A stretch of 64,000 nucleotides of DNA from the IMG/VR virus record IMGVR_UViG_3300031992_004563, positions 1 to 64,000 of that record. One strand, written 5' to 3'. The stretch is from a virus (lineage: Duplodnaviria; Heunggongvirae; Uroviricota; Caudoviricetes). Position 1 is the stretch's first letter. Each line of letters opens with the position of its first letter. The notes beneath the pieces were generated by a model. That model was given only the letters and a program-made list of their open reading frames with translations. It was not told where the DNA came from and did no database searches. A program made the translations under genes and the position numbers. This document shows, piece by piece, positions 16,271-64,000 of this stretch.

Positions 16271-17269
16271 ATGAAACAATATAAACAAATATTAGAAGCA
16301 ATAAACAGAGGCATTAAATTAGCTCTTGATGATTTTGAAGATGATGTTCAATATTCATCTGATAATAAATCTAACATTATTGATACAGAAGATGTAATTA
16401 GAAATCGTATGTATGATAATGTTGTTGATATGGGATTGCCATCAAGAACATTATGGTGTAAATATAATGCAGGAGTTGATTATGATTGTATAAAATAGGA
16501 ACTTGAAAATATATCAAGAAGAAAAGGTACACCATTACAACAATTAGATTATATTTCGCCATGTCCTTTATGGGTTGGTGAATTATGCGGTTGGGGTGAA
16601 ATATTTCCAGAAGTTCATCGCACTTTTAATTATAATAGAGGAGGTTTAAAAAACGAATTCAATTGGTATAAGTATAGATATACAAAATCAGATGATTATG
16701 AAATTGAAAGCGAAAAATTGGCGCATAGATTAACGAAATATTGCACAAATAGATTATATGGTAAAAACTTTTTAAAAGATAATTTAAAAACACTTTAGCC
16801 TATTGATGATGAAGCAACATTTGATGCATTAAACTATAAATACCCATATAAAGTTAAAATGCCAACGTCACAAGATTATATTGAATTATTACAATATACA
16901 GAAAAAACTTTAGTTGAACATTATAATAATGTAAATGGGTTAAATGGCTTATTATTAAAATCATTAAAAAATGGCAAAGAATTATTTTTCCCTTATACAG
17001 GGATGTTTGTTGGGCCATTTAGACAAAATGAATATCAATCTGGTCATTATTGGTGTACTGATTTATTTGAAAAAGAACCTAATTTAGCTTATTCATTTAA
17101 TTTTGGAACATTTGAACGTGTAGAAGATAAAGTATTAAAAAGTTCTGGACTAACTTTAGATCATAAAAAAGATTTTTATGAAGATAATACAGGTGTAATA
17201 ATAGCTTATGAACGATATAGAGGTTTTGCAATTAGAGGTATTATTAAAAAATTTAACATAAATGATTAA
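16271..17269 (+). CDS. Tagged paralog family member (tag + CLec-like domain); TAG=Gln
   Basis: MKQYKQILEAINRGIKLALDDFED..VDMGLPSRTLWC..GWGE..MPT..YW..GFAIRG. Confidence 0.8.
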
Positions 17270-45870: not shown

Positions 45871-45969
45871 ATGATGAAGAGTTTTAAAAATAGTAGATGT
45901 TTTGCAAGCAGTACTTTTAAAAGCACTAGCTGTAAACTTTTTTGGCTCTTTGAGAAGGGTATTCAGTGA
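45871..45969 (+). CDS. Leader peptide of putative tRNA-operon attenuator 1 (MMKSFKNSRCFASSTFKSTSCKLFWLFEKGIQ)
   Basis: 32-aa uORF between an AAAC-N17-TATAAT motif and tRNA array 1; codons match downstream anticodons. Confidence 0.75.
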   Translation: MMKSFKNSRCFASSTFKSTSCKLFWLFEKGIQ

Positions 45970-46026
45970 TTAAAGAAGATTATACATTTTAAGCGATTAT
46001 ATATTTCTTAAGATTAGACATTTACA

Positions 46027-46064
46027 AAGTTCTTTAGTCACTATGATTAAAGAACTTCATTTTT
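46027..46064 (+). terminator. Attenuator terminator 1
   Basis: aagttctttagtca-cta-tgattaaagaactt + cattttt; 5' arm also complementary to 45965-45977. Confidence 0.75.
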
Positions 46065-46068
46065 ATAT

Positions 46069-46141
46069 AGATCGGTAGTTTAATTGGTAGAATGACGCAC
46101 TCCAAATGCGTGGGATATGGGTTCGAATCCTGTCCGGTCTG
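46069..46141 (+). tRNA. tRNA-Trp(CCA)
   Basis: agatcgg/ccggtct acceptor, acgca-ctccaaa-tgcgt, ttcgaat T-loop. Confidence 0.9.
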
Positions 46142-46245
46142 CAAAACAAAATGATTAAAAGGATAAAACAATGAAACGAAAACAAGTCAAACATATTTAA
46201 TGTCTCGTTAAATCAGAGAGATTACGAGGCATTGTAAAAACAAAC

Positions 46246-46321
46246 GCACTCGTAGCTCAGTTGGTTTTAGAGCACGCGCCTTTTAAGCGTGGGGTCCCGG
46301 GTTCGAATCCCGGTGGGTGCA
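46246..46321 (+). tRNA. tRNA-Lys(UUU)
   Basis: Canonical cloverleaf, cgcgc-cttttaa-gcgtg. Confidence 0.92.
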
Positions 46322-46337
46322 CAAATTAAATAAGTTT

Positions 46338-46411
46338 GGTCTTATAGTTTAATTGGTAAAATCTCGCACTTTTAATGCGTAAGAGTCTCGGTTCGAATCC
46401 GGGTGGGACCA
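46338..46411 (+). tRNA. tRNA-Lys(UUU), second divergent copy
   Basis: ggtctta/tgggacc acceptor, tcgca-cttttaa-tgcgt. Confidence 0.85.
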
Positions 46412-46438
46412 CAAAAATGAACATTGAAATTTTATTAT

Positions 46439-46678
46439 GGAGCTTTGGCAGACATGGTGTATGCGCCGGACTGATCATAGATTAGCAACTATAATAAAGA
46501 GCTAATTATCATATGAATGGGAATTGGGATACCATCGCTTGAGATAATATCAAAATAGTGGGAGAGGAAGGTGTTCTCCATAAAGGTTGATAAAATTTTT
46601 AAAAAATTTTATAATTTAGGTTCGAGTCCTAATATGGTAACAAATCCGGTTAACGAGGTTCGAGTCCTCGAGGCTCCG
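46439..46678 (+). tRNA. Interrupted tRNA, most likely Phe(GAA), with about 167-nt insertion (46475-46641) in the anticodon
   Basis: ggagctt..ccgga-ctga | insert | aaa-tccgg..cgagg-ttcgagt-cctcg-aggctcc. Confidence 0.75.
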
Positions 46679-46702
46679 CAAATTTGAACATTGAAATAAT
46701 AT

Positions 46703-46775
46703 GGACCAGTAGCTCAAATAGTAGAGCACATCCCTGAAGAGGATGGTGTAGGCGGGGCAGTACCGTCCTGGTCCA
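46703..46775 (+). tRNA. tRNA-Phe(GAA) with non-canonical T-loop
   Basis: ggaccag/ctggtcc, catcc-ctgaaga-ggatg, T-loop ggcagta. Confidence 0.8.
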
Positions 46776-46780
46776 CAAAT

Positions 46781-46960
46781 GGGTCAGTAGCTTAAAATGG
46801 ACAAAGCACGGTAAAAAGAAGTGGCCGCGGTGTCAATCAGTAATCTGAAATATGGTACTGTAATTTTGCGGAAGCACCGAAAAGAAGTGATATTCGAGTA
46901 AGGAAGCGCATTTTATGTGGCACCTTAAACATAATGCGGGTTCAAATCCCACCTGATCCA
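46781..46960 (+). ncRNA. tRNA-like RNA with anticodon arm replaced by a multi-hairpin domain of about 125 nt
   Basis: gggtcag/ctgatcc acceptor, gctt..aagc D-arm, ggg-ttcaaat-ccc T-arm. Confidence 0.6.
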
Positions 46961-46972
46961 CGAAAATTAAAT

Positions 46973-47049
46973 GACCGAGTGCTCGAGTGGTTTAAGGGGT
47001 GTGGCCGCAACCCACATATTTTTCGTCAGTTCGAATCTGACCTCGGTTT
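46973..47049 (+). tRNA. tRNA-Cys(GCA)
   Basis: tgtgg-ccgcaac-ccaca, U73 discriminator; C at position 33. Confidence 0.85.
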
Positions 47050-47061
47050 CAAAAATAAAAT

Positions 47062-47151
47062 AGAGGAGTACCCAAGTTGGTGAAGGGACCGCATTGCTAA
47101 CGCGGCAGGTCGGAGAAATTCGGCGCAGGAGTTCGAGCCTCCTCTCCTCTA
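47062..47151 (+). tRNA. tRNA-Ser(GCU)
   Basis: agaggag/ctcctct, loop ttgctaa, long variable arm. Confidence 0.88.
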
Positions 47152-47233
47152 CAAAATTATGTATTAATGTGTTTACCAATTTTGTCACTATAGTACTTAA
47201 ATAAATATAATATAAAAAGTATTTTATTTAATT

Positions 47234-48247
47234 ATGGAATATAAATGTATATGTGGAAAAGAATTTGATAATGCATTAGCATTAGGCGGGCATAAAGGTA
47301 ATTGCCAATAGGCTAAAGAAGAAAGATAGAAACAATTAAAAATTTTAAAATTAAAAGAAGATAATTATAATTGTATATGTAATTGTGGAAGAAAATTTAA
47401 AACACTAAAAAGTCTAAATTCACATGCTAGATTTTGTGATCAATATTAGAAAAAAGATAAATAGCTATCTAAATATTTAAATACAGAAACATTAATATAT
47501 AAATGTGAATGTGGGTATGAAACAAAAAATTATTAGTCATTAAATTCACATTTTTCTCATTGTAAATTACATAGGCAAATAAATAATAAAGATTGTTCAG
47601 ATGAATATTGGAATAAAAGAAATCATCCGGGTAAAATGTTAGGGTGGGATAATTTTTCAGAAGAGAAAATAAAATCAATATATAAAAAATGTTAGTTAAC
47701 ATTACATAATAAGTATAAATCTGGTGAATTAATACCGACTTTTATGGGAAAACAACATACTGAAGAAACTAAAAAACATTTATCAGATATTGCGGTAGAA
47801 CATAAATTAAATGGAACATCTCCAGCACATTTAGGTGAGCATATGTCATATTTAGAAAAATGGTTTTATAATGAAATTTTATAGAAATATAATATTTTAA
47901 ATAAATTTGATGTTGTAAGAGAATATTGCGAAAAACCATATTTTATTGATTATTCTTTTCCTAATATTAAAGTTGGGTTTGAAATGGATGGCATGTTTCA
48001 TTTAACAGATGAAAATCATATAAGACATGATAAAAAACGAGATGAATATTTAACTAGTATTGGTTGGACACTATATAGATATAATTATGAACAAATTAAA
48101 TATGATACTGATAAAACAATTGAAGATATATTAAATGTAATTCAAAAATATACAGATAATAAATTAGGAGAAGCTAAATTATATAGTTATCAAGAATATA
48201 AAAAATTAATTACCCCAGTACCCGAATTGGTATAGGGGCCAGATTAA
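47234..48247 (+). CDS. Free-standing homing-type endonuclease: zinc fingers + NUMOD3-like + DUF559/Vsr-like nuclease; TAG-recoded
   Basis: CxCGKEF..H repeats, GKQHTEETKKHLS, YFIDY..FEMDG..H..D..RD..L..GW; 3' end overlaps tRNA-Leu. Confidence 0.8.
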
Positions 48248-48293
48248 GGATCTGGTGTCACAAGACATGAGGGTTCGAGTCCCTCCTGGGGTA
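48212..48293 (+). tRNA. tRNA-Leu(AAG)
   Basis: accccag/ctggggt, ccaga-ttaagga-tctgg, variable arm, A73. Confidence 0.85.
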
Positions 48294-48323
48294 CAATAAA
48301 TATTTAAATGAATAATTTAATCT

Positions 48324-59278: not shown

Positions 59279-59374
59279 ATAAATAATAAAATTTCTTTAA
59301 TAAATAAAAAGAGCAAATAAACTTTTTTATACATTTGACTAAAATAAATAAATAGAAAAATAAATAAATTACAA

Positions 59375-59491
59375 ATGCTACAAAATTATAAGGAACATAT
59401 GAATACCATTATTCTTGGTGGAAATGAACAACGACCATCAACAGTGTCTTCATCTGCTGCCTATAATAATGATGCACGATATGTGAGGTAA
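59375..59491 (+). CDS. Leader peptide of putative attenuator 2 (MLQNYKEHMNTIILGGNEQRPSTVSSSAAYNNDARYVR)
   Basis: 38-aa uORF after AAAC-N17-TAAAAT, followed by antiterminator/terminator pair. Confidence 0.65.
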   Translation: MLQNYKEHMNTIILGGNEQRPSTVSSSAAYNNDARYVR

Positions 59492-59514
59492 AACCCAATG
59501 AAATAGAGATACAC

Positions 59515-59557
59515 TAAAGTTCCTTGGGTTGAAAAACTTAAGGAACTTTAAATTTTT
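59515..59557 (+). terminator. Attenuator terminator 2
   Basis: taaagttccttgggtt-gaaa-aacttaaggaacttta + aattttt. Confidence 0.75.
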
Positions 59558-59641
59558 ATAACTTCTATTTTTTAGATTAAATAAAAAGATATAATTTTGT
59601 ATCGTCAATTTCAAAAAGGCGTTCTTTAACAAATTGAAACA

Positions 59642-59745
59642 TGGTTGGTAGTTTATCCCGTAGATAAAACAATAAGCCTTTACCCAATAGCGCTATTAAG
59701 TAATGTAAGTCTTATAGAAGTCAGGTGCGAATCTGGCCCGACTGC
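59642..59745 (+). ncRNA. tRNA-like RNA with 34-nt expanded anticodon loop
   Basis: tggttgg/ccgactg acceptor, D-like arm, ataag/cttat stem, gtcag..ctggc T-like arm. Confidence 0.5.
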
Positions 59746-59970
59746 AAATAAAAAATATGAACAAAATTTAACTTCTATTTTTTAGATTAAAATAAAAGTA
59801 ATAATTTTGCATCACATTTGGAAAATAATGGTAATTTTTAAAAAAGATTATTTCATTATAAACTTTTTTGAAAAACCTTATATAAATTATAAATGCAACA
59901 GAGAAATCTGAAAACATTTTAAAAAGAGATCTTTGACGTATTGAGATTAGAAATTAAAAGAAAGAAATTT

Positions 59971-60850
59971 AATTGCCTAACTGAAATCCTGAAATATGGT
60001 TGCTAACCGTCAATTGTGGATCACACCACATAGTAATGGGAACCAGAGGGAAGGCAATACAATTATATAGCCAACATTCTTCCTGTGAAGGTTTTTTAGT
60101 TGGCAATTCGCCAACGCTTTGACGCAACAAGCGTTACCCTTAAGGGATTAGGAGTTGAGTCAATATTGTGAGGGAAAACACATAGAATTGACCCTATATG
60201 GGTTGATAAAACCTTTCTCGTTAAATTAGTCATTTGTACTATGATGCTTCGAGGACAATAAGAGAGATAGGTTGAGCAACCCTATCAAACCTTAGTTGAA
60301 ATAAACAACTATAAAAATATAAATCTTGGTAAAGTGGGTGAGCGTCTTGTAACTCAAGAAGAGAGCTCCTCTTAAACGGGTGGCGAGTGTCCAGAATAAC
60401 CAATCTCTGATATAGGCTTTACCAAATCTAATAGTTGAAAGAAACAACTTTAAAAACTGTATAATAGAAATATTATATTTTATCTACTTTTGTAGATGCG
60501 TAATGATATAATACATATTGTTACAAAGTTTATAAGTGTTAGGATTGGAAGTGTCCATACTTAATGAGTGGTTGCCCACCGGATCTATTAAGGCCCATCG
60601 GTAACAGATGGAAACTCAACTTAGTCGGATAAATGGAAAAAGAAACTTTAAGTTCAATTTTGTACGAGTATGACTGAAAAGGGATTGTGCAAAATATATT
60701 TACCTTTGGTGTAATAACACGCTTATAAATCATTTTTATTTTACCATAGTGTATGAAACTATCTCGGTATAGAATGCACGCCTCAAGTAGGAAGGCTGGT
60801 TAGAACAGCAGGTAAAATAACAAGTTTAAGGTTCCTGCTTATAAACCTTT
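59971..60850 (+). ncRNA. Large multi-domain structured RNA region (identity unknown)
   Basis: No credible ORF, raised GC, nested closing helices 59971/60108, 60326/60425, 60529/60729, 60736/60820. Confidence 0.55.
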
Positions 60851-60874
60851 GACAATCTGGAAAGACAGATGACT

Positions 60875-60946
60875 GGGAGATTAGTATATCGGTTATTACG
60901 CTGGCCTGTTAAGCCATGAAGCCTGGTTCGACTCCAGGATCTCCCG
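60875..60946 (+). tRNA. tRNA-Asn(GUU)
   Basis: gggagat/atctccc, tggc-ctgttaa-gcca, G73. Confidence 0.88.
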
Positions 60947-61131
60947 CAGGTCCTGGTTTCTTTAGTGGAGATAAAATTACATGGCGATTAAAAAGACGAA
61001 ACTCCACAAATTTTTAAGCTAATCAGCCTAGTCTGAAAAGTAAGGTCAGTGTTTAGTCATTGGTAAAACGTCAATTCGTACGCCTGAAATAAAGATACTT
61101 AGCTTAAGTTTTCCGGATAACACCGGAGGTA

Positions 61132-61204
61132 CATCTTCAAGCTTAGAAGAGACGAAGCACTGGATTTTACCAGTAGTAGCGAGGGGCGGTTCCTCGGAAG
61201 ATGG
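61132..61204 (+). ncRNA. tRNA-like RNA with 6-nt anticodon loop and non-canonical T-loop
   Basis: catcttc/gaagatg, gctt..aagc, actgg-atttta-ccagt, cgagg-ggcggtt-cctcg. Confidence 0.6.
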
Positions 61205-61586
61205 CAAAAATTCCAAAACTCTTGCTACAACAAGATGAGGTGGCGTTTATATAAACTATTTGTAATTGGTTGTAGACTTTTACAAACAAGTATATGTTCG
61301 AAAAATTGGAACATGGTGTAAGAGTGGTGAGCACGCTGGTTGTGAAGACCGGAGACTGGTGTGGTTCGATTCCCCCGCCCAAACTAAAATCCATAAGTTT
61401 AGTAGTATCTTATACGCGTTAAAAAACTACTCGGGTTTATAGCCCCAACCTGAATTTTAATATATTACTGATGGGGCATTTCAAACTGAGCGAGTAAACA
61501 CTGCAATGTTGAAACACTCTGGCGTTCATAATATATTAGTAAATCATTGCTTGCAGGTTTTGATCGAAAGTTGAATGTTCGTAAAA

Positions 61587-61704
61587 TGATAATGGTGTAA
61601 ATTGGACAGCACGCCCCATGGTGGGGAGGTAGAAGACCAAGGTTGGGCAGCCGTAAAACCGAAAGGGGAACCTGGTGGCAGTTGGTTCGAGTCCGCTTTA
61701 TCAA
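61587..61704 (+). ncRNA. tRNA-like RNA with collapsed anticodon loop and giant variable region
   Basis: tgataa/ttatca, gtgt..gcac D-arm, cccca-tgg-tgggg, gg-ttcgagt-cc. Confidence 0.55.
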
Positions 61705-61809
61705 CAACGTAGTTATATAGGACGCTATATAACGAACAGACTACATGGATGAAGGAAAGCCGCCTCCACAAGGAAGGAGAAACCAGGATCGAAACTGGGG
61801 GTAGTCCTA

Positions 61810-62320
61810 AATTTTCTCTAAGTCCAATTTTTTAGAGTGATAGCTTTGTATACCAAGCGAAGAAGGTGGGGTATTACGGATGTGAAGATTCCTTTGAGAA
61901 TAAATTCTTGCGCAAGGGTTTATTTGAAATGCATTCAAAAATTGTAGTGATAATGGACATCCAAAAACAATTAAAGAATCTTATTTTTGGCGGAGGCCAC
62001 TAATCCTCTTAGCCAGTGTATAAGTCCTATTACGTGAACGGAGACCCACATTAAACGACCTTTAATAGGCGGCATGTACAGTGAACGGTGAATCACTATA
62101 AAAACGCGTTGATGGTACACATTTAGAAAGAACCATACAAGGAACGATATTAGTGGTCAGGTCCCAAGAGAGATAAACACACTAGGCTCTCAATTTTATT
62201 AAAGGTTAAACACTGAGTGACGCTGGATGGCGTTCCTAAGGGTGTCGGGTAAGTGCATCAAAGGCTAAGCGAAGCATAACAGCCACATTTAAAGGGTGAT
62301 TAGCTAGTTCCCTCATTTTA
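61810..62320 (+). ncRNA. Large ornate RNA, ROOL-like candidate
   Basis: About 500 nt without ORF; long-range pairings 61995-62004/62149-62158 and 61841-61848/62259-62267. Confidence 0.45.
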
Positions 62321-62531
62321 TAATGATTTTATATTAATAATAAGTTTTTTGAGTAAAAACAAAAAGAAACTCAATTCTTTAATTACAATGTTAATTGAAG
62401 TCTTATCTTTACCACCGGAGGTTGTTATACCACGGGCTTATTTTAGAAATTAGAAAGTAAGAGTTTTAATTATGTTTTTTAAGGTTTCTTTTCCTAATTT
62501 TCTTTAACTGACTAAAGTAAAATTTGAAACC

Positions 62532-62612
62532 GCCTCAATGGGACAGTTGGTCGACTCCGCCACCCTTGTAATGTGGAATTATACATCGTCGGTTCGAATC
62601 CGGCTTGAGGCT
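62532..62612 (+). tRNA. tRNA-Thr(UGU) with long variable loop
   Basis: gcctcaa/ttgaggc, loop cttgtaa, gtcgg-ttcgaat-ccggc. Confidence 0.75.
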
Positions 62613-62677
62613 CAAAAGATTACAATTTTTTGTAATTGATTTGAAATAAATATAATATAAAAGAAATATTATTATTT

Positions 62678-63709
62678 ATGAGAATGAGAAATGGTTTAAG
62701 TGAAAGTGAAGCTGGAAAATTAGGAGCTATTGCTGCAAAAAAGATTTATGAAGAACGTAAATTAAAAGCAATTCAAATATATAATGAAAATCCTAATTTA
62801 TGTGCTTATTGCAATAACCCAATTCCATATATAAAACGTGGAAATAAATGTTGTTGTCAAAGTCATTCAGTTTCATATTCAAATTTACAAAGAACACCTG
62901 AACAAAATAAAAAGAAAGCATAGAGTATTAAAAAATATTATGAAAATAAATTAGTAATTAAAGATAATATACATGATCGTAAAGTATTTACAAAACCAGA
63001 AGATATCGAAAAACATAGAAAGATAAAATATTGTAAATATTGTGGTTGTGAAAAAGGTAAATGTATTGATGAATATGTATGTAAAAAACATCAAATATTT
63101 AAAACTTTAGAAAAATTTGGATTTGATAATTCAAAAATTGGAACAGTTGATATAGTAGATGAATATTATAAAATAAGAAATATAATTTTAGATTTTTATT
63201 TAAAAAATGGTTCAGATGAAACATTATTAAAAGATTAGTTTAATTATATTTCGGGTGGAGCAAATTTTCATAAAATATTAAAATCTTTAGATATTAATAG
63301 TAGAAATCAATCTGATGCTCAATAGTTTTCTATTGAGCATAATAGAAGAGATTTAATTCCAGTAGGAATACATTATAAATTTAAAGATGAATATCATATA
63401 ACATGGGATAATAGAGAAGTTTATTTACGATCAAGTTATGAAACTGATTTTGCAAATGAACTTGATAATAAACAAATTTATTATGAAGTAGAAACATTAA
63501 GAATAAAATATTTTGATACACAAAGGAATCAATTTAGATTAGCAGTTCCTGATTTTTATCTACCTGAAACAAATATGATAATTGAAATAAAATCTATATT
63601 TACTTTAGACATTCAAAATATGAAAGATAAAGTTAAAGCATATAAAGATTTAGGATATAATTTTAAATTAATTCTTGAACATCAAGAAGTTGATTTAAAT
63701 TCATTATAA
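62678..63709 (+). CDS. Free-standing homing-type PD-(D/E)xK endonuclease (TnsA-N-like) with Cys clusters; TAG-recoded
   Basis: CAYC, CKYCGC, LRSSYE..PDFYL..IEIKS; frame open to TAA 63707-63709. Confidence 0.75.
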
Positions 63710-63711
63710 AT

Positions 63712-63828
63712 AAGTGTAAAAGATATCGGTTCGAATCCGGCTCGCACGGAAGCAGAGAGTCAGACTTCCAAGTGATAGTTGGCCTGAAATTGGTCTTAGA
63801 ATATAATTGGCCTAAAACATTTACACTT
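63712..63828 (+). ncRNA. Circularly permuted tRNA-like RNA (YrlA/Y-RNA-like topology)
   Basis: aagtgtaaa/tttacactt closing stem; T-arm first, closed acceptor-like stem, D-like arm last. Confidence 0.5.
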
Positions 63829-63854
63829 TAAACTATAAAATCCAAATATGACTA

Positions 63855-63997
63855 GTTTGGTTGACACCATGAAAGAATGGTCCGCTATAGGGTGATGTAG
63901 TCGTTTGCAGACCCGTTAGTTTACCGTTAAAGATCCACGGGATGCATGGTTAATTGGTTTTACCGCAGGATGGAGATTAGTCACTTCAAAACCAAAC
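63855..63997 (+). ncRNA. raiA-motif-like RNA (minimal version)
   Basis: gtttggtt/aaccaaac closing stem and ordered motifs UGGUUGA, AGUCG, GAUCCACG, GCAUGGU, GCAGG, UCAAAACCA. Confidence 0.5.
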
Positions 63998-64000
63998 CTT

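Follow-up and report, generated by a model that had tools for sequence, protein, structure and literature searches.

Introduction

Leader-peptide attenuators are known from amino-acid operons and include trpL, hisL, leuL and the multivalent leaders of thrL and ilvGMEDA. Genes of aminoacyl-tRNA synthetases can also be attenuated, as in pheM-pheST of E. coli, and T-box riboswitches recognize uncharged tRNA by direct binding, without an ORF. The classical attenuator is defined in PMC1262725, in which trpS and leuS of Streptomyces are given as attenuator candidates and look-alike Streptomyces leaders are reported to have failed mutation tests. According to PMC10264068, the purpose of the tRNA genes carried by phages has been unclear for over 50 years, and the title of that paper proposes that they serve to evade tRNA-targeting defences. 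A literature search that covered mostly open-access main texts gave no report of tRNA genes controlled by leader-peptide attenuation. The strings 'attenuat', 'leader' and 'terminator' are absent from the main texts of three papers on Lak phages (PMC6784885, PMC8346664 and PMC11165621), as are 'attenuat' and 'leader' from the main texts of PMC7824862 and 10.1101/572362.

Here we analyze cassette 2, a real, conserved and codon-matched leader-terminator cassette located upstream of a phage tRNA array. With trpL, hisL, leuL, thrL and ilvGMEDA it shares a short ORF, a candidate alternative antiterminator, an intrinsic terminator, a predicted read-through upon stalling and leader codons that are related to the product. 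It differs from them in three ways. First, its target is a block of phage tRNA genes and not a set of enzymes. Second, its leader samples 17 amino acids with few repeats, whereas theirs contain runs of one to three. Third, its candidate antiterminator strand is located just past the stop codon and no protector hairpin is predicted. The attenuators of synthetase genes (pheM-pheST, trpS, leuS) resemble the proposed function of cassette 2 in that the supply of charged tRNA feeds back on a gene of the translation machinery, but each of them responds to one amino acid, their output is a synthetase and not a tRNA, and they are chromosomal. T-boxes have in common with the proposed function of cassette 2 a terminator/antiterminator switch that reads tRNA status; no T-box was matched by Rfam in the window, i.e. 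the whole 64-kb stretch of DNA analyzed here (gathering score), or between 59 and 79 kb (E 0.5). We consider it probable that cassette 2 is a trp-type, ribosome-mediated transcription attenuator that reports the decoding of the codons served by the array behind it (array 2). Judging from its sequence, it would work like a multivalent leader-peptide attenuator and not like a classical one, as it has no codon runs and no protector hairpin and is not the sole gate of the array.

The cassette is carried by a giant phage related to Lak

The virus record (G000) that begins with the 64-kb window comprises 380,519 bases at 28% G+C, and its completeness is estimated at 76%. ORFs cover 0.86 of the window when TAG is read as Gln (table 15) and 0.62 with table 11. 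In a comparison of the terminase with 50,697 phage records, the 15 top matches are Lak phages, with identities of 43.5-44%. By both recoding and terminase, G000 is a giant phage that reads TAG as Gln and is related to Lak. With the Lak megaphages (order Grandevirales) it shares the use of TAG as Gln, a terminase with 44% identity and clustered tRNAs with inserts. Most of the stretch is present in runs labelled sheep gut metagenome, and relatives are present in two more runs, one of them with a bovine gut label. The host is probably a member of the Bacteroidota, given the kinship with Lak and a promoter motif of G000 that we take to resemble the Bacteroidota type. Neither sigma-70 region 2 nor RtcB was matched in G000, at its estimated completeness of 76%.

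Relatives were found in several ways. A terminase search yielded records with about 75% identity, of which G001, G002 and G003 carry tRNA arrays. Pattern scans added five further metagenome loci (five of five matches true) and one additional array 1 (L057; four of nine matches true); the other five matches of the L057 scan, and the only match of another scan, were due to chance. A blastn search of cassette 2 against cultured phages gave no match, and none of 21 candidates was confirmed among the viral contigs searched with the neighbouring protein. No tRNA was found in PTm1 and MaF61 at E 1e-9 or in G007 at 1e-7, and the array starts examined in PAU and Aeh1 showed no leader ORF with a terminator.

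Layout of cassette 2

All elements of cassette 2 lie on the plus strand. It begins with a class B promoter-like motif (AAAC-N17-TAAAAT; 59317-59350, motif at 59319), one of 12 such sites found by weight matrix and a putative promoter. In an iterated weight-matrix scan, class B sites were also found upstream of array 1, of a lone tRNA-Leu(UAA) and of the tmRNA. The motif is followed by an A-rich translation start context (59350-59374), the score of which is at the 46th percentile of 270 gene starts and is matched by only 0.8% of internal Met codons. Leader ORF 2 (59375-59491) has 38 codons for 17 types of amino acids, each present in 1 to 5 copies without long runs. It contains no Phe, Trp or Cys, a single Lys (AAG), four Ser that are all TCN, five Asn, and Thr as ACC and ACA. 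Tandem codons are limited to pairs and triplets (Ile, Ser, Ala, Asn); no run of regulatory codons is present and the leader is a broad sampler. The peptide had no match in Pfam. Directly 3' of the stop codon, a candidate antiterminator strand (59492-59502) can pair with 59520-59530, within a hairpin resembling an intrinsic terminator with an interrupted U tail (59515-59559, hairpin at 59515-59550), which was detected by folding and by a terminator scan. As expected for an attenuator, a short leader ORF with a usable start is sited between a promoter motif and the array.

An initial annotation, made from the sequence, had described this anatomy; the motif at 59319, the limits of the ORF, the absence of Phe, Trp and Cys and the restriction of Ser to TCN all check, and the complementarity at 10 of 11 positions between 59492-59502 and 59520-59530 was recomputed and is correct. 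It had also noted a start context common to the two leaders of the genome, which holds for leader 1 and leader 2 in G000 but is not kept in relatives. The partner cassette, also on the plus strand (45871-46057), consists of leader ORF 1 (45871-45969), an antiterminator strand (45966-45977) and a terminator (46027-46057). It precedes array 1 (46069-48294, plus strand), which carries tRNAs for Trp, Lys(UUU) (two copies), Phe, Cys, Ser(GCU) and Leu(AAG) together with interrupted tRNA-like genes.

The codons of each leader match the tRNA array that follows

ARAGORN identified 31 tRNAs in G000. Rfam agrees and adds two, at 46703 and 71851, to which the anticodons Phe(GAA) and Gly(GCC), respectively, were assigned by eye. 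Array 2, on the plus strand, starts at 60875 and continues beyond the end of the window to 73,965. Its first members, tRNA-Asn(GUU) at 60875-60947 and tRNA-Thr(UGU) at 62532-62613, are those that had been reported in the initial annotation. Beyond 64,000 the array carries tRNAs for Gln, Ile, Pro, Glu, Met (three copies), Asp, Ala, Ser(UGA), Tyr, His, Leu, Val, Arg, Gly and Lys(CUU). In total, array 2 (60.9-74.0 kb) comprises 18 anticodon classes, none of them for Phe, Trp, Cys or Ser(GCU). It had been predicted from the leader codons that tRNAs such as Tyr, His, Met and Ile would be present past 64000 and that Phe, Trp, Cys and Ser-GCU would be rare or missing, which is what the extended record contains. 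Outside both arrays, a single tRNA is found at 279 kb and three more at 76.6-78.3 kb, separated from array 2 by protein genes and hairpins.

Codons were assigned to arrays by standard wobble, assuming that U34 reads all four codons in four-codon boxes. Leader 1 has 17 codons served by array 1 only and 9 served by array 2 only among its 31 codons, compared to 0 and 32 among the 37 codons of leader 2 (Fisher p = 1.6e-8 for leader by array, or 1.4e-7 when the three distal tRNAs are assigned to array 2). In leader 1, array-1-only codons account for 17 of the 26 informative codons against a background of 0.196 (19.6%), an enrichment with p 4.5e-7. The depletion in leader 2 taken alone has p 0.001; assigning the distal Lys(UUU) at 76.8 kb to array 2 weakens this to 0.023. 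The codons of leader 2 cover 17 of the 18 anticodon classes of array 2, Leu(CAA) being the one missing. Among 2,514 real windows of 37 codons, 8 cover as many classes and 15 are as depleted, and none is both; none of 100,000 simulated windows matches leader 2 in coverage and depletion. The codon split between leaders and arrays exceeds chance.

The cassette is conserved in relatives while the peptide drifts

Cassette 2 is intact in the seven relatives in which it was found (G002, G003 and L048-L052). The ORF has 37-38 codons without an internal stop, and C bases immediately follow its stop codon. tRNA arrays follow the cassette in G002, G003 and L048; the sequences of L049-L051 end early, and L052 has a promoter motif and a protein gene at this position instead. 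Including G000, the frame of leader 2 is open in eight of eight alleles. Its variable codons comprise 11 amino-acid-changing and 4 silent changes, a total of 15 that gives little power. The peptide drifts and the frame is kept. In the terminator, an 11-base core of the 5' arm is invariant across the eight alleles, and two pairs are changed on both sides, which represents one event between two groups of relatives. The antiterminator of the relatives still pairs, by a different geometry (-10.4 to -10.5). No covariation of the antiterminator was seen across alleles and compensatory changes were absent, because the 5' arm is invariant.

These patterns bear on the product through which the cassette would act. 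The 38-residue peptide, or the short terminated RNA, could act in trans, the position in front of an array being secondary. Short peptide motifs are common to both groups of relatives, and the leader peptide peTrpL has been reported to act in trans. Yet no purifying selection on the peptide is seen within groups, Pfam offers no family for it, and the leaders of Lak and of the distant phage G006 (see below) have the layout in common but not the sequence, so that we hold a trans-acting product to be very improbable. An attenuator acting in cis, as we prefer, is the reading pursued here.

The codon content of the leaders also follows the location of one tRNA gene. In G001, G002, G003 and L057, tRNA-Val is part of array 1 and leader 1 contains 2, 3, 4 and 3 Val codons, respectively. 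In G000, tRNA-Val is part of array 2; leader 1 lacks Val codons and leader 2 contains two. In the G002 group, leader 2 carries one Val in five alleles. This swap is a single evolutionary event between two groups. Otherwise, codon matching in relatives is loose: one allele has a Phe codon, Ser AGY is present in four of five alleles of the G002 group, and leader 1 of G001 contains seven Asn, yet no tRNA-Asn was called in its array.

Lak phages and a distant phage share the layout

The leader-terminator layout is common to G000, Lak-B1, Lak-C1, G004, L107 and L109. In Lak-B1 and Lak-C1, both arrays come directly after an ORF and a terminator. The ORF has 42 codons at the small array (His, Pro, Arg, Gly, Cys, Met) and 37 codons at the large array, in which Trp is first. 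G000 differs from Lak in the division of tRNAs between arrays and in the extra promoter motifs behind cassette 2. The leaders of the small arrays contain two His, two or three Pro, four or five Gly, four Cys and six Met, and those of the large arrays no His, Pro or Gly and one Trp. The association of leader with array is significant by Fisher test (p 5.4e-4 for Lak-B1 and 0.023 for Lak-C1, whose interrupted tRNAs escape detection and leave the array list incomplete). Small-array leaders are enriched in the codons of their own array (p 4e-5 and 1e-4); the depletion in large-array leaders is not significant (p 0.14 and 0.64). Antiterminator duplexes of the Lak leaders lie within the 3' part of the ORFs, at -14.9, -13.7, -11.5 and -8.2, and were equalled by 0, 3, 72 and 346 of 1,000 shuffles, respectively. 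The Lak leaders recur in G004, L107 and L109. That each array has its own matched sensor, as proposed in the initial annotation, is supported at the level of codons in G000 and in Lak phages with a different tRNA split, and from this match we infer regulation.

The same layout is found in G006, whose terminase segment is 36% identical, before an array of more than 30 tRNAs. Its leader (L098:4838) has 55 codons for 19 amino acids, with Cys alone absent. No Cys tRNA was called in that array and a tRNA-Cys is located elsewhere; the absence of Cys from 55 codons is not significant alone.

Predicted folding of terminator and antiterminator

The hairpin at 59515-59550 has 16 pairs and a stability of -19.9 kcal/mol (z -6.1), equalled by none of 200 shuffles. 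A stable hairpin, an interrupted U tract and detection by a terminator scan together qualify it as a candidate intrinsic terminator. The antiterminator strand (59492-59502) pairs with the loop-side part of the 5' arm in a duplex of -10.8 kcal/mol, in which three Gs of the arm form G-C pairs, compared to one G-C and two G-U pairs inside the terminator. To mimic a stalled ribosome, codons 1-10, codons 1-20 or the whole ORF except its final six codons were masked; the growing transcript was then predicted to pair 11 of the 16 arm bases. When the region of the stop codon was masked, this pairing was lost, the prefix folded at -0.8 kcal/mol and the terminator gained 19 kcal/mol. In leader 2 devoid of a ribosome, the antiterminator still holds 11 of the 16 arm bases. 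The protector (1:2) hairpin of classical attenuators is not predicted in leader 2, so that an untranslated leader would read through; leader 1 of G000 is trp-like in this respect (3 of 14 arm bases). In all free states the finished terminator is 9.6-12.4 kcal/mol more stable than the alternative fold. As the terminator is more stable even with the antiterminator free, the switch would have to be kinetic and depend on the order of folding.

Taken alone, the antiterminator pairing is only modestly above chance (p about 0.01-0.2 in shuffles): it was equalled by 219 of 5,000 shuffles of the 27 bases around the stop, by 55 of 5,000 random genomic 27-mers and, when the entire leader was shuffled, in 233 of 1,000 cases. 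Genome-wide, no stop-proximal antiterminator duplex is stronger than those of the two leaders (-10.9 and -10.8), the best of 47 terminators behind long genes reaching -8.6. Eight combinations of a short ORF and a terminator were found in the genome; leader 1 and leader 2 rank at the top of these, together with a second reading frame within leader 2. There is no third leader cassette in G000, since the duplexes of the remaining five are -6.1 or weaker.

These folds are relevant to what the leader would measure. A true attenuator could read general translation activity (ribosome load, shut-off or stage of infection), with the codon split a matter of the ancestral history of array and leader. Such a sensor would be consistent with a leader spread over 17 amino acids in 1 to 5 copies without long runs, with the folding of the untranslated leader into the antiterminator and with the mismatched codons tolerated in relatives. 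It does not account for the enrichment of leader 1 and of the Lak small-array leaders in codons of their own arrays (p 4.5e-7, 4e-5 and 1e-4), nor for Val codons that track the tRNA-Val gene, and we regard it as unlikely. For the preferred reading, an attenuator resolving the codons of array 2, the folding predicts two states. A ribosome that has arrived at the stop codon would occlude 59492-59502, so that the 5' arm is available and the terminator would form. With a ribosome stalled upstream, or absent, the free strand would pair with the loop-side half of the 5' arm ahead of the synthesis of the 3' arm, resulting in read-through. The signal would be a shortage of functional charged tRNA, whether caused by host tRNA cleavage, by decay or by starvation.

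Cassette 2 probably adds to the expression of array 2

Weight-matrix scans of G000 yielded 32 class A and 12 class B promoter-like sites. Downstream of the terminator of cassette 2, all on the plus strand, lie a class A motif (59559-59610), which is one of the 32 intergenic sites, a second class A motif (59769-59820), conserved in G002, G003, L048 and L049, and a second class B motif within 59858-59943. The latter is combined with a hairpin (59899-59910) and a presumed boxA-like motif (59928-59943), an arrangement kept in the same four relatives. Another presumed boxA-like motif is seen in the sequence at 59621-59636 and is conserved in relatives. Between the two class A motifs, a tRNA-like element (59643-59746) has acceptor-like ends and, by eye, a T-loop-like 3' part; it was not called by ARAGORN or Rfam, and relatives have a similar element at the matching position. 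The warning in the initial annotation that further promoters could bypass the terminator was well founded: the motifs at 59559, 59769 and 59858 are real members of their classes and are kept in relatives. The class B motif at 59858 is likely to be an unregulated entry to array 2.

All 32 class A sites are intergenic, and the next genes are TAG-free in 25 of 27 cases, compared to 248 of 428 ORFs overall. As these genes are mostly free of TAG, class A motifs may be used early, before TAG is read as Gln.

Contigs of two RNA libraries (X2 and X4, from one sample of one study) both cover leader ORF 2. One X2 contig bridges 58900-60253. In X4, a contig over 59373-59487 is followed by near-zero cover to 59902 and then by a contig from 59903, with adapter, beside the downstream class B motif. 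As contigs give no starts, ends or levels and the region has repeats, we give none of these contigs weight as evidence.

Three conserved promoter motifs separate the terminator from array 2, and cassette 2 is therefore likely a booster and not an on/off gate. It would probably add to the expression of array 2, read-through from 59317 topping up a basal supply instead of switching the array on. In array 1 and in Lak the terminator abuts the first tRNA, as in a main gate, which makes these cleaner cases than array 2.

The same motifs raise the question of whether the hairpin is regulated. It could be a constitutive terminator of the upstream gene run (57.0-59.3 kb) that insulates the promoters of the array, the ORF being leftover or incidental. 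No other hairpin is evident between the end of the upstream gene (59278) and the hairpin at 59515, the terminator is the equilibrium structure in all folds, promoter motifs of array 2 itself lie downstream, and in leader 2 amino-acid changes outnumber silent ones, as under neutrality. Constitutive termination leaves unexplained, however, the codon split, the good start context and the Val swap, as well as a dedicated promoter motif 25 bases upstream of the ORF and the Lak and G006 layouts in which the terminator abuts the first tRNA. We give it a small chance, comparable to that of a sensor of general translation, and retain attenuation by codon-specific stalling as the favoured interpretation.

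Implications for the tRNA genes of phages

A wider reading, to which we grant slightly less than an even chance, is that Lak-related and other giant phages have codon-resolved feedback on their own tRNA supply. The translated test sequence of each block would detect the loss of exactly the tRNAs of that block, for instance upon attack by a host anticodon nuclease, and would be rewritten when a tRNA gene moves from one block to another. If feedback is indeed exerted, the codon content of a leader would be a readable record of the tRNAs that a phage monitors. Attenuation would also be extended to a new class of targets, the tRNA genes themselves. A sensor that raises the expression of phage tRNA genes upon decoding shortage would make the question of why phages carry tRNAs testable, since constitutive codon compensation needs no switch and replacement on demand does. 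The layout exists in Lak genomes that are publicly available, apparently without having been noted before, and a cassette of about 240 bases can be assayed in a laboratory strain of Bacteroidota without phage culture.

Neighbouring RNA and coding features

Several other features were noted around the arrays. In the G002/G003 group, a TAG codon is located 1 to 4 codons before the stop in both leaders (L034:6468, L036:7498, L033:10374 and L035:6374), and the switch of this group could also read the supply of a suppressor tRNA; TAG is absent from the leaders of G000, whose genome yielded no suppressor tRNA at the default score. A tmRNA (Rfam E 6.6e-30) is encoded on the minus strand of G000 (C1, 269448-269849), and a class B promoter motif lies immediately upstream of it. 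Near the end of array 2, a short RNA on the plus strand (C1, about 75890-76030; L001, about 16890-17030) received no Rfam call at E 0.5; two of its motifs resemble what we take to be the conserved ends of RNase P RNA. Between the tRNAs of array 2, dense non-coding RNA units that belong to no Rfam family occupy 59900-64000 of the window and 5000-6000 of L001, and between many of them lies a small recurrent hairpin motif with an A-rich run behind it.

tRNA-like genes with long inserts are present in the window at 46439-46680, 46781-46961 and 61586-61705, one of them with a nested tRNA-like piece, and the interrupted element at 46781 is conserved in G001. tRNA introns have been described in Lak (PMC6784885). 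Finally, both arrays contain a Cys-rich ORF of about 340 aa with TAG codons (47234-48247 and 62678-63709 of the window), and these ORFs possibly encode homing endonucleases, although this assignment is a guess.
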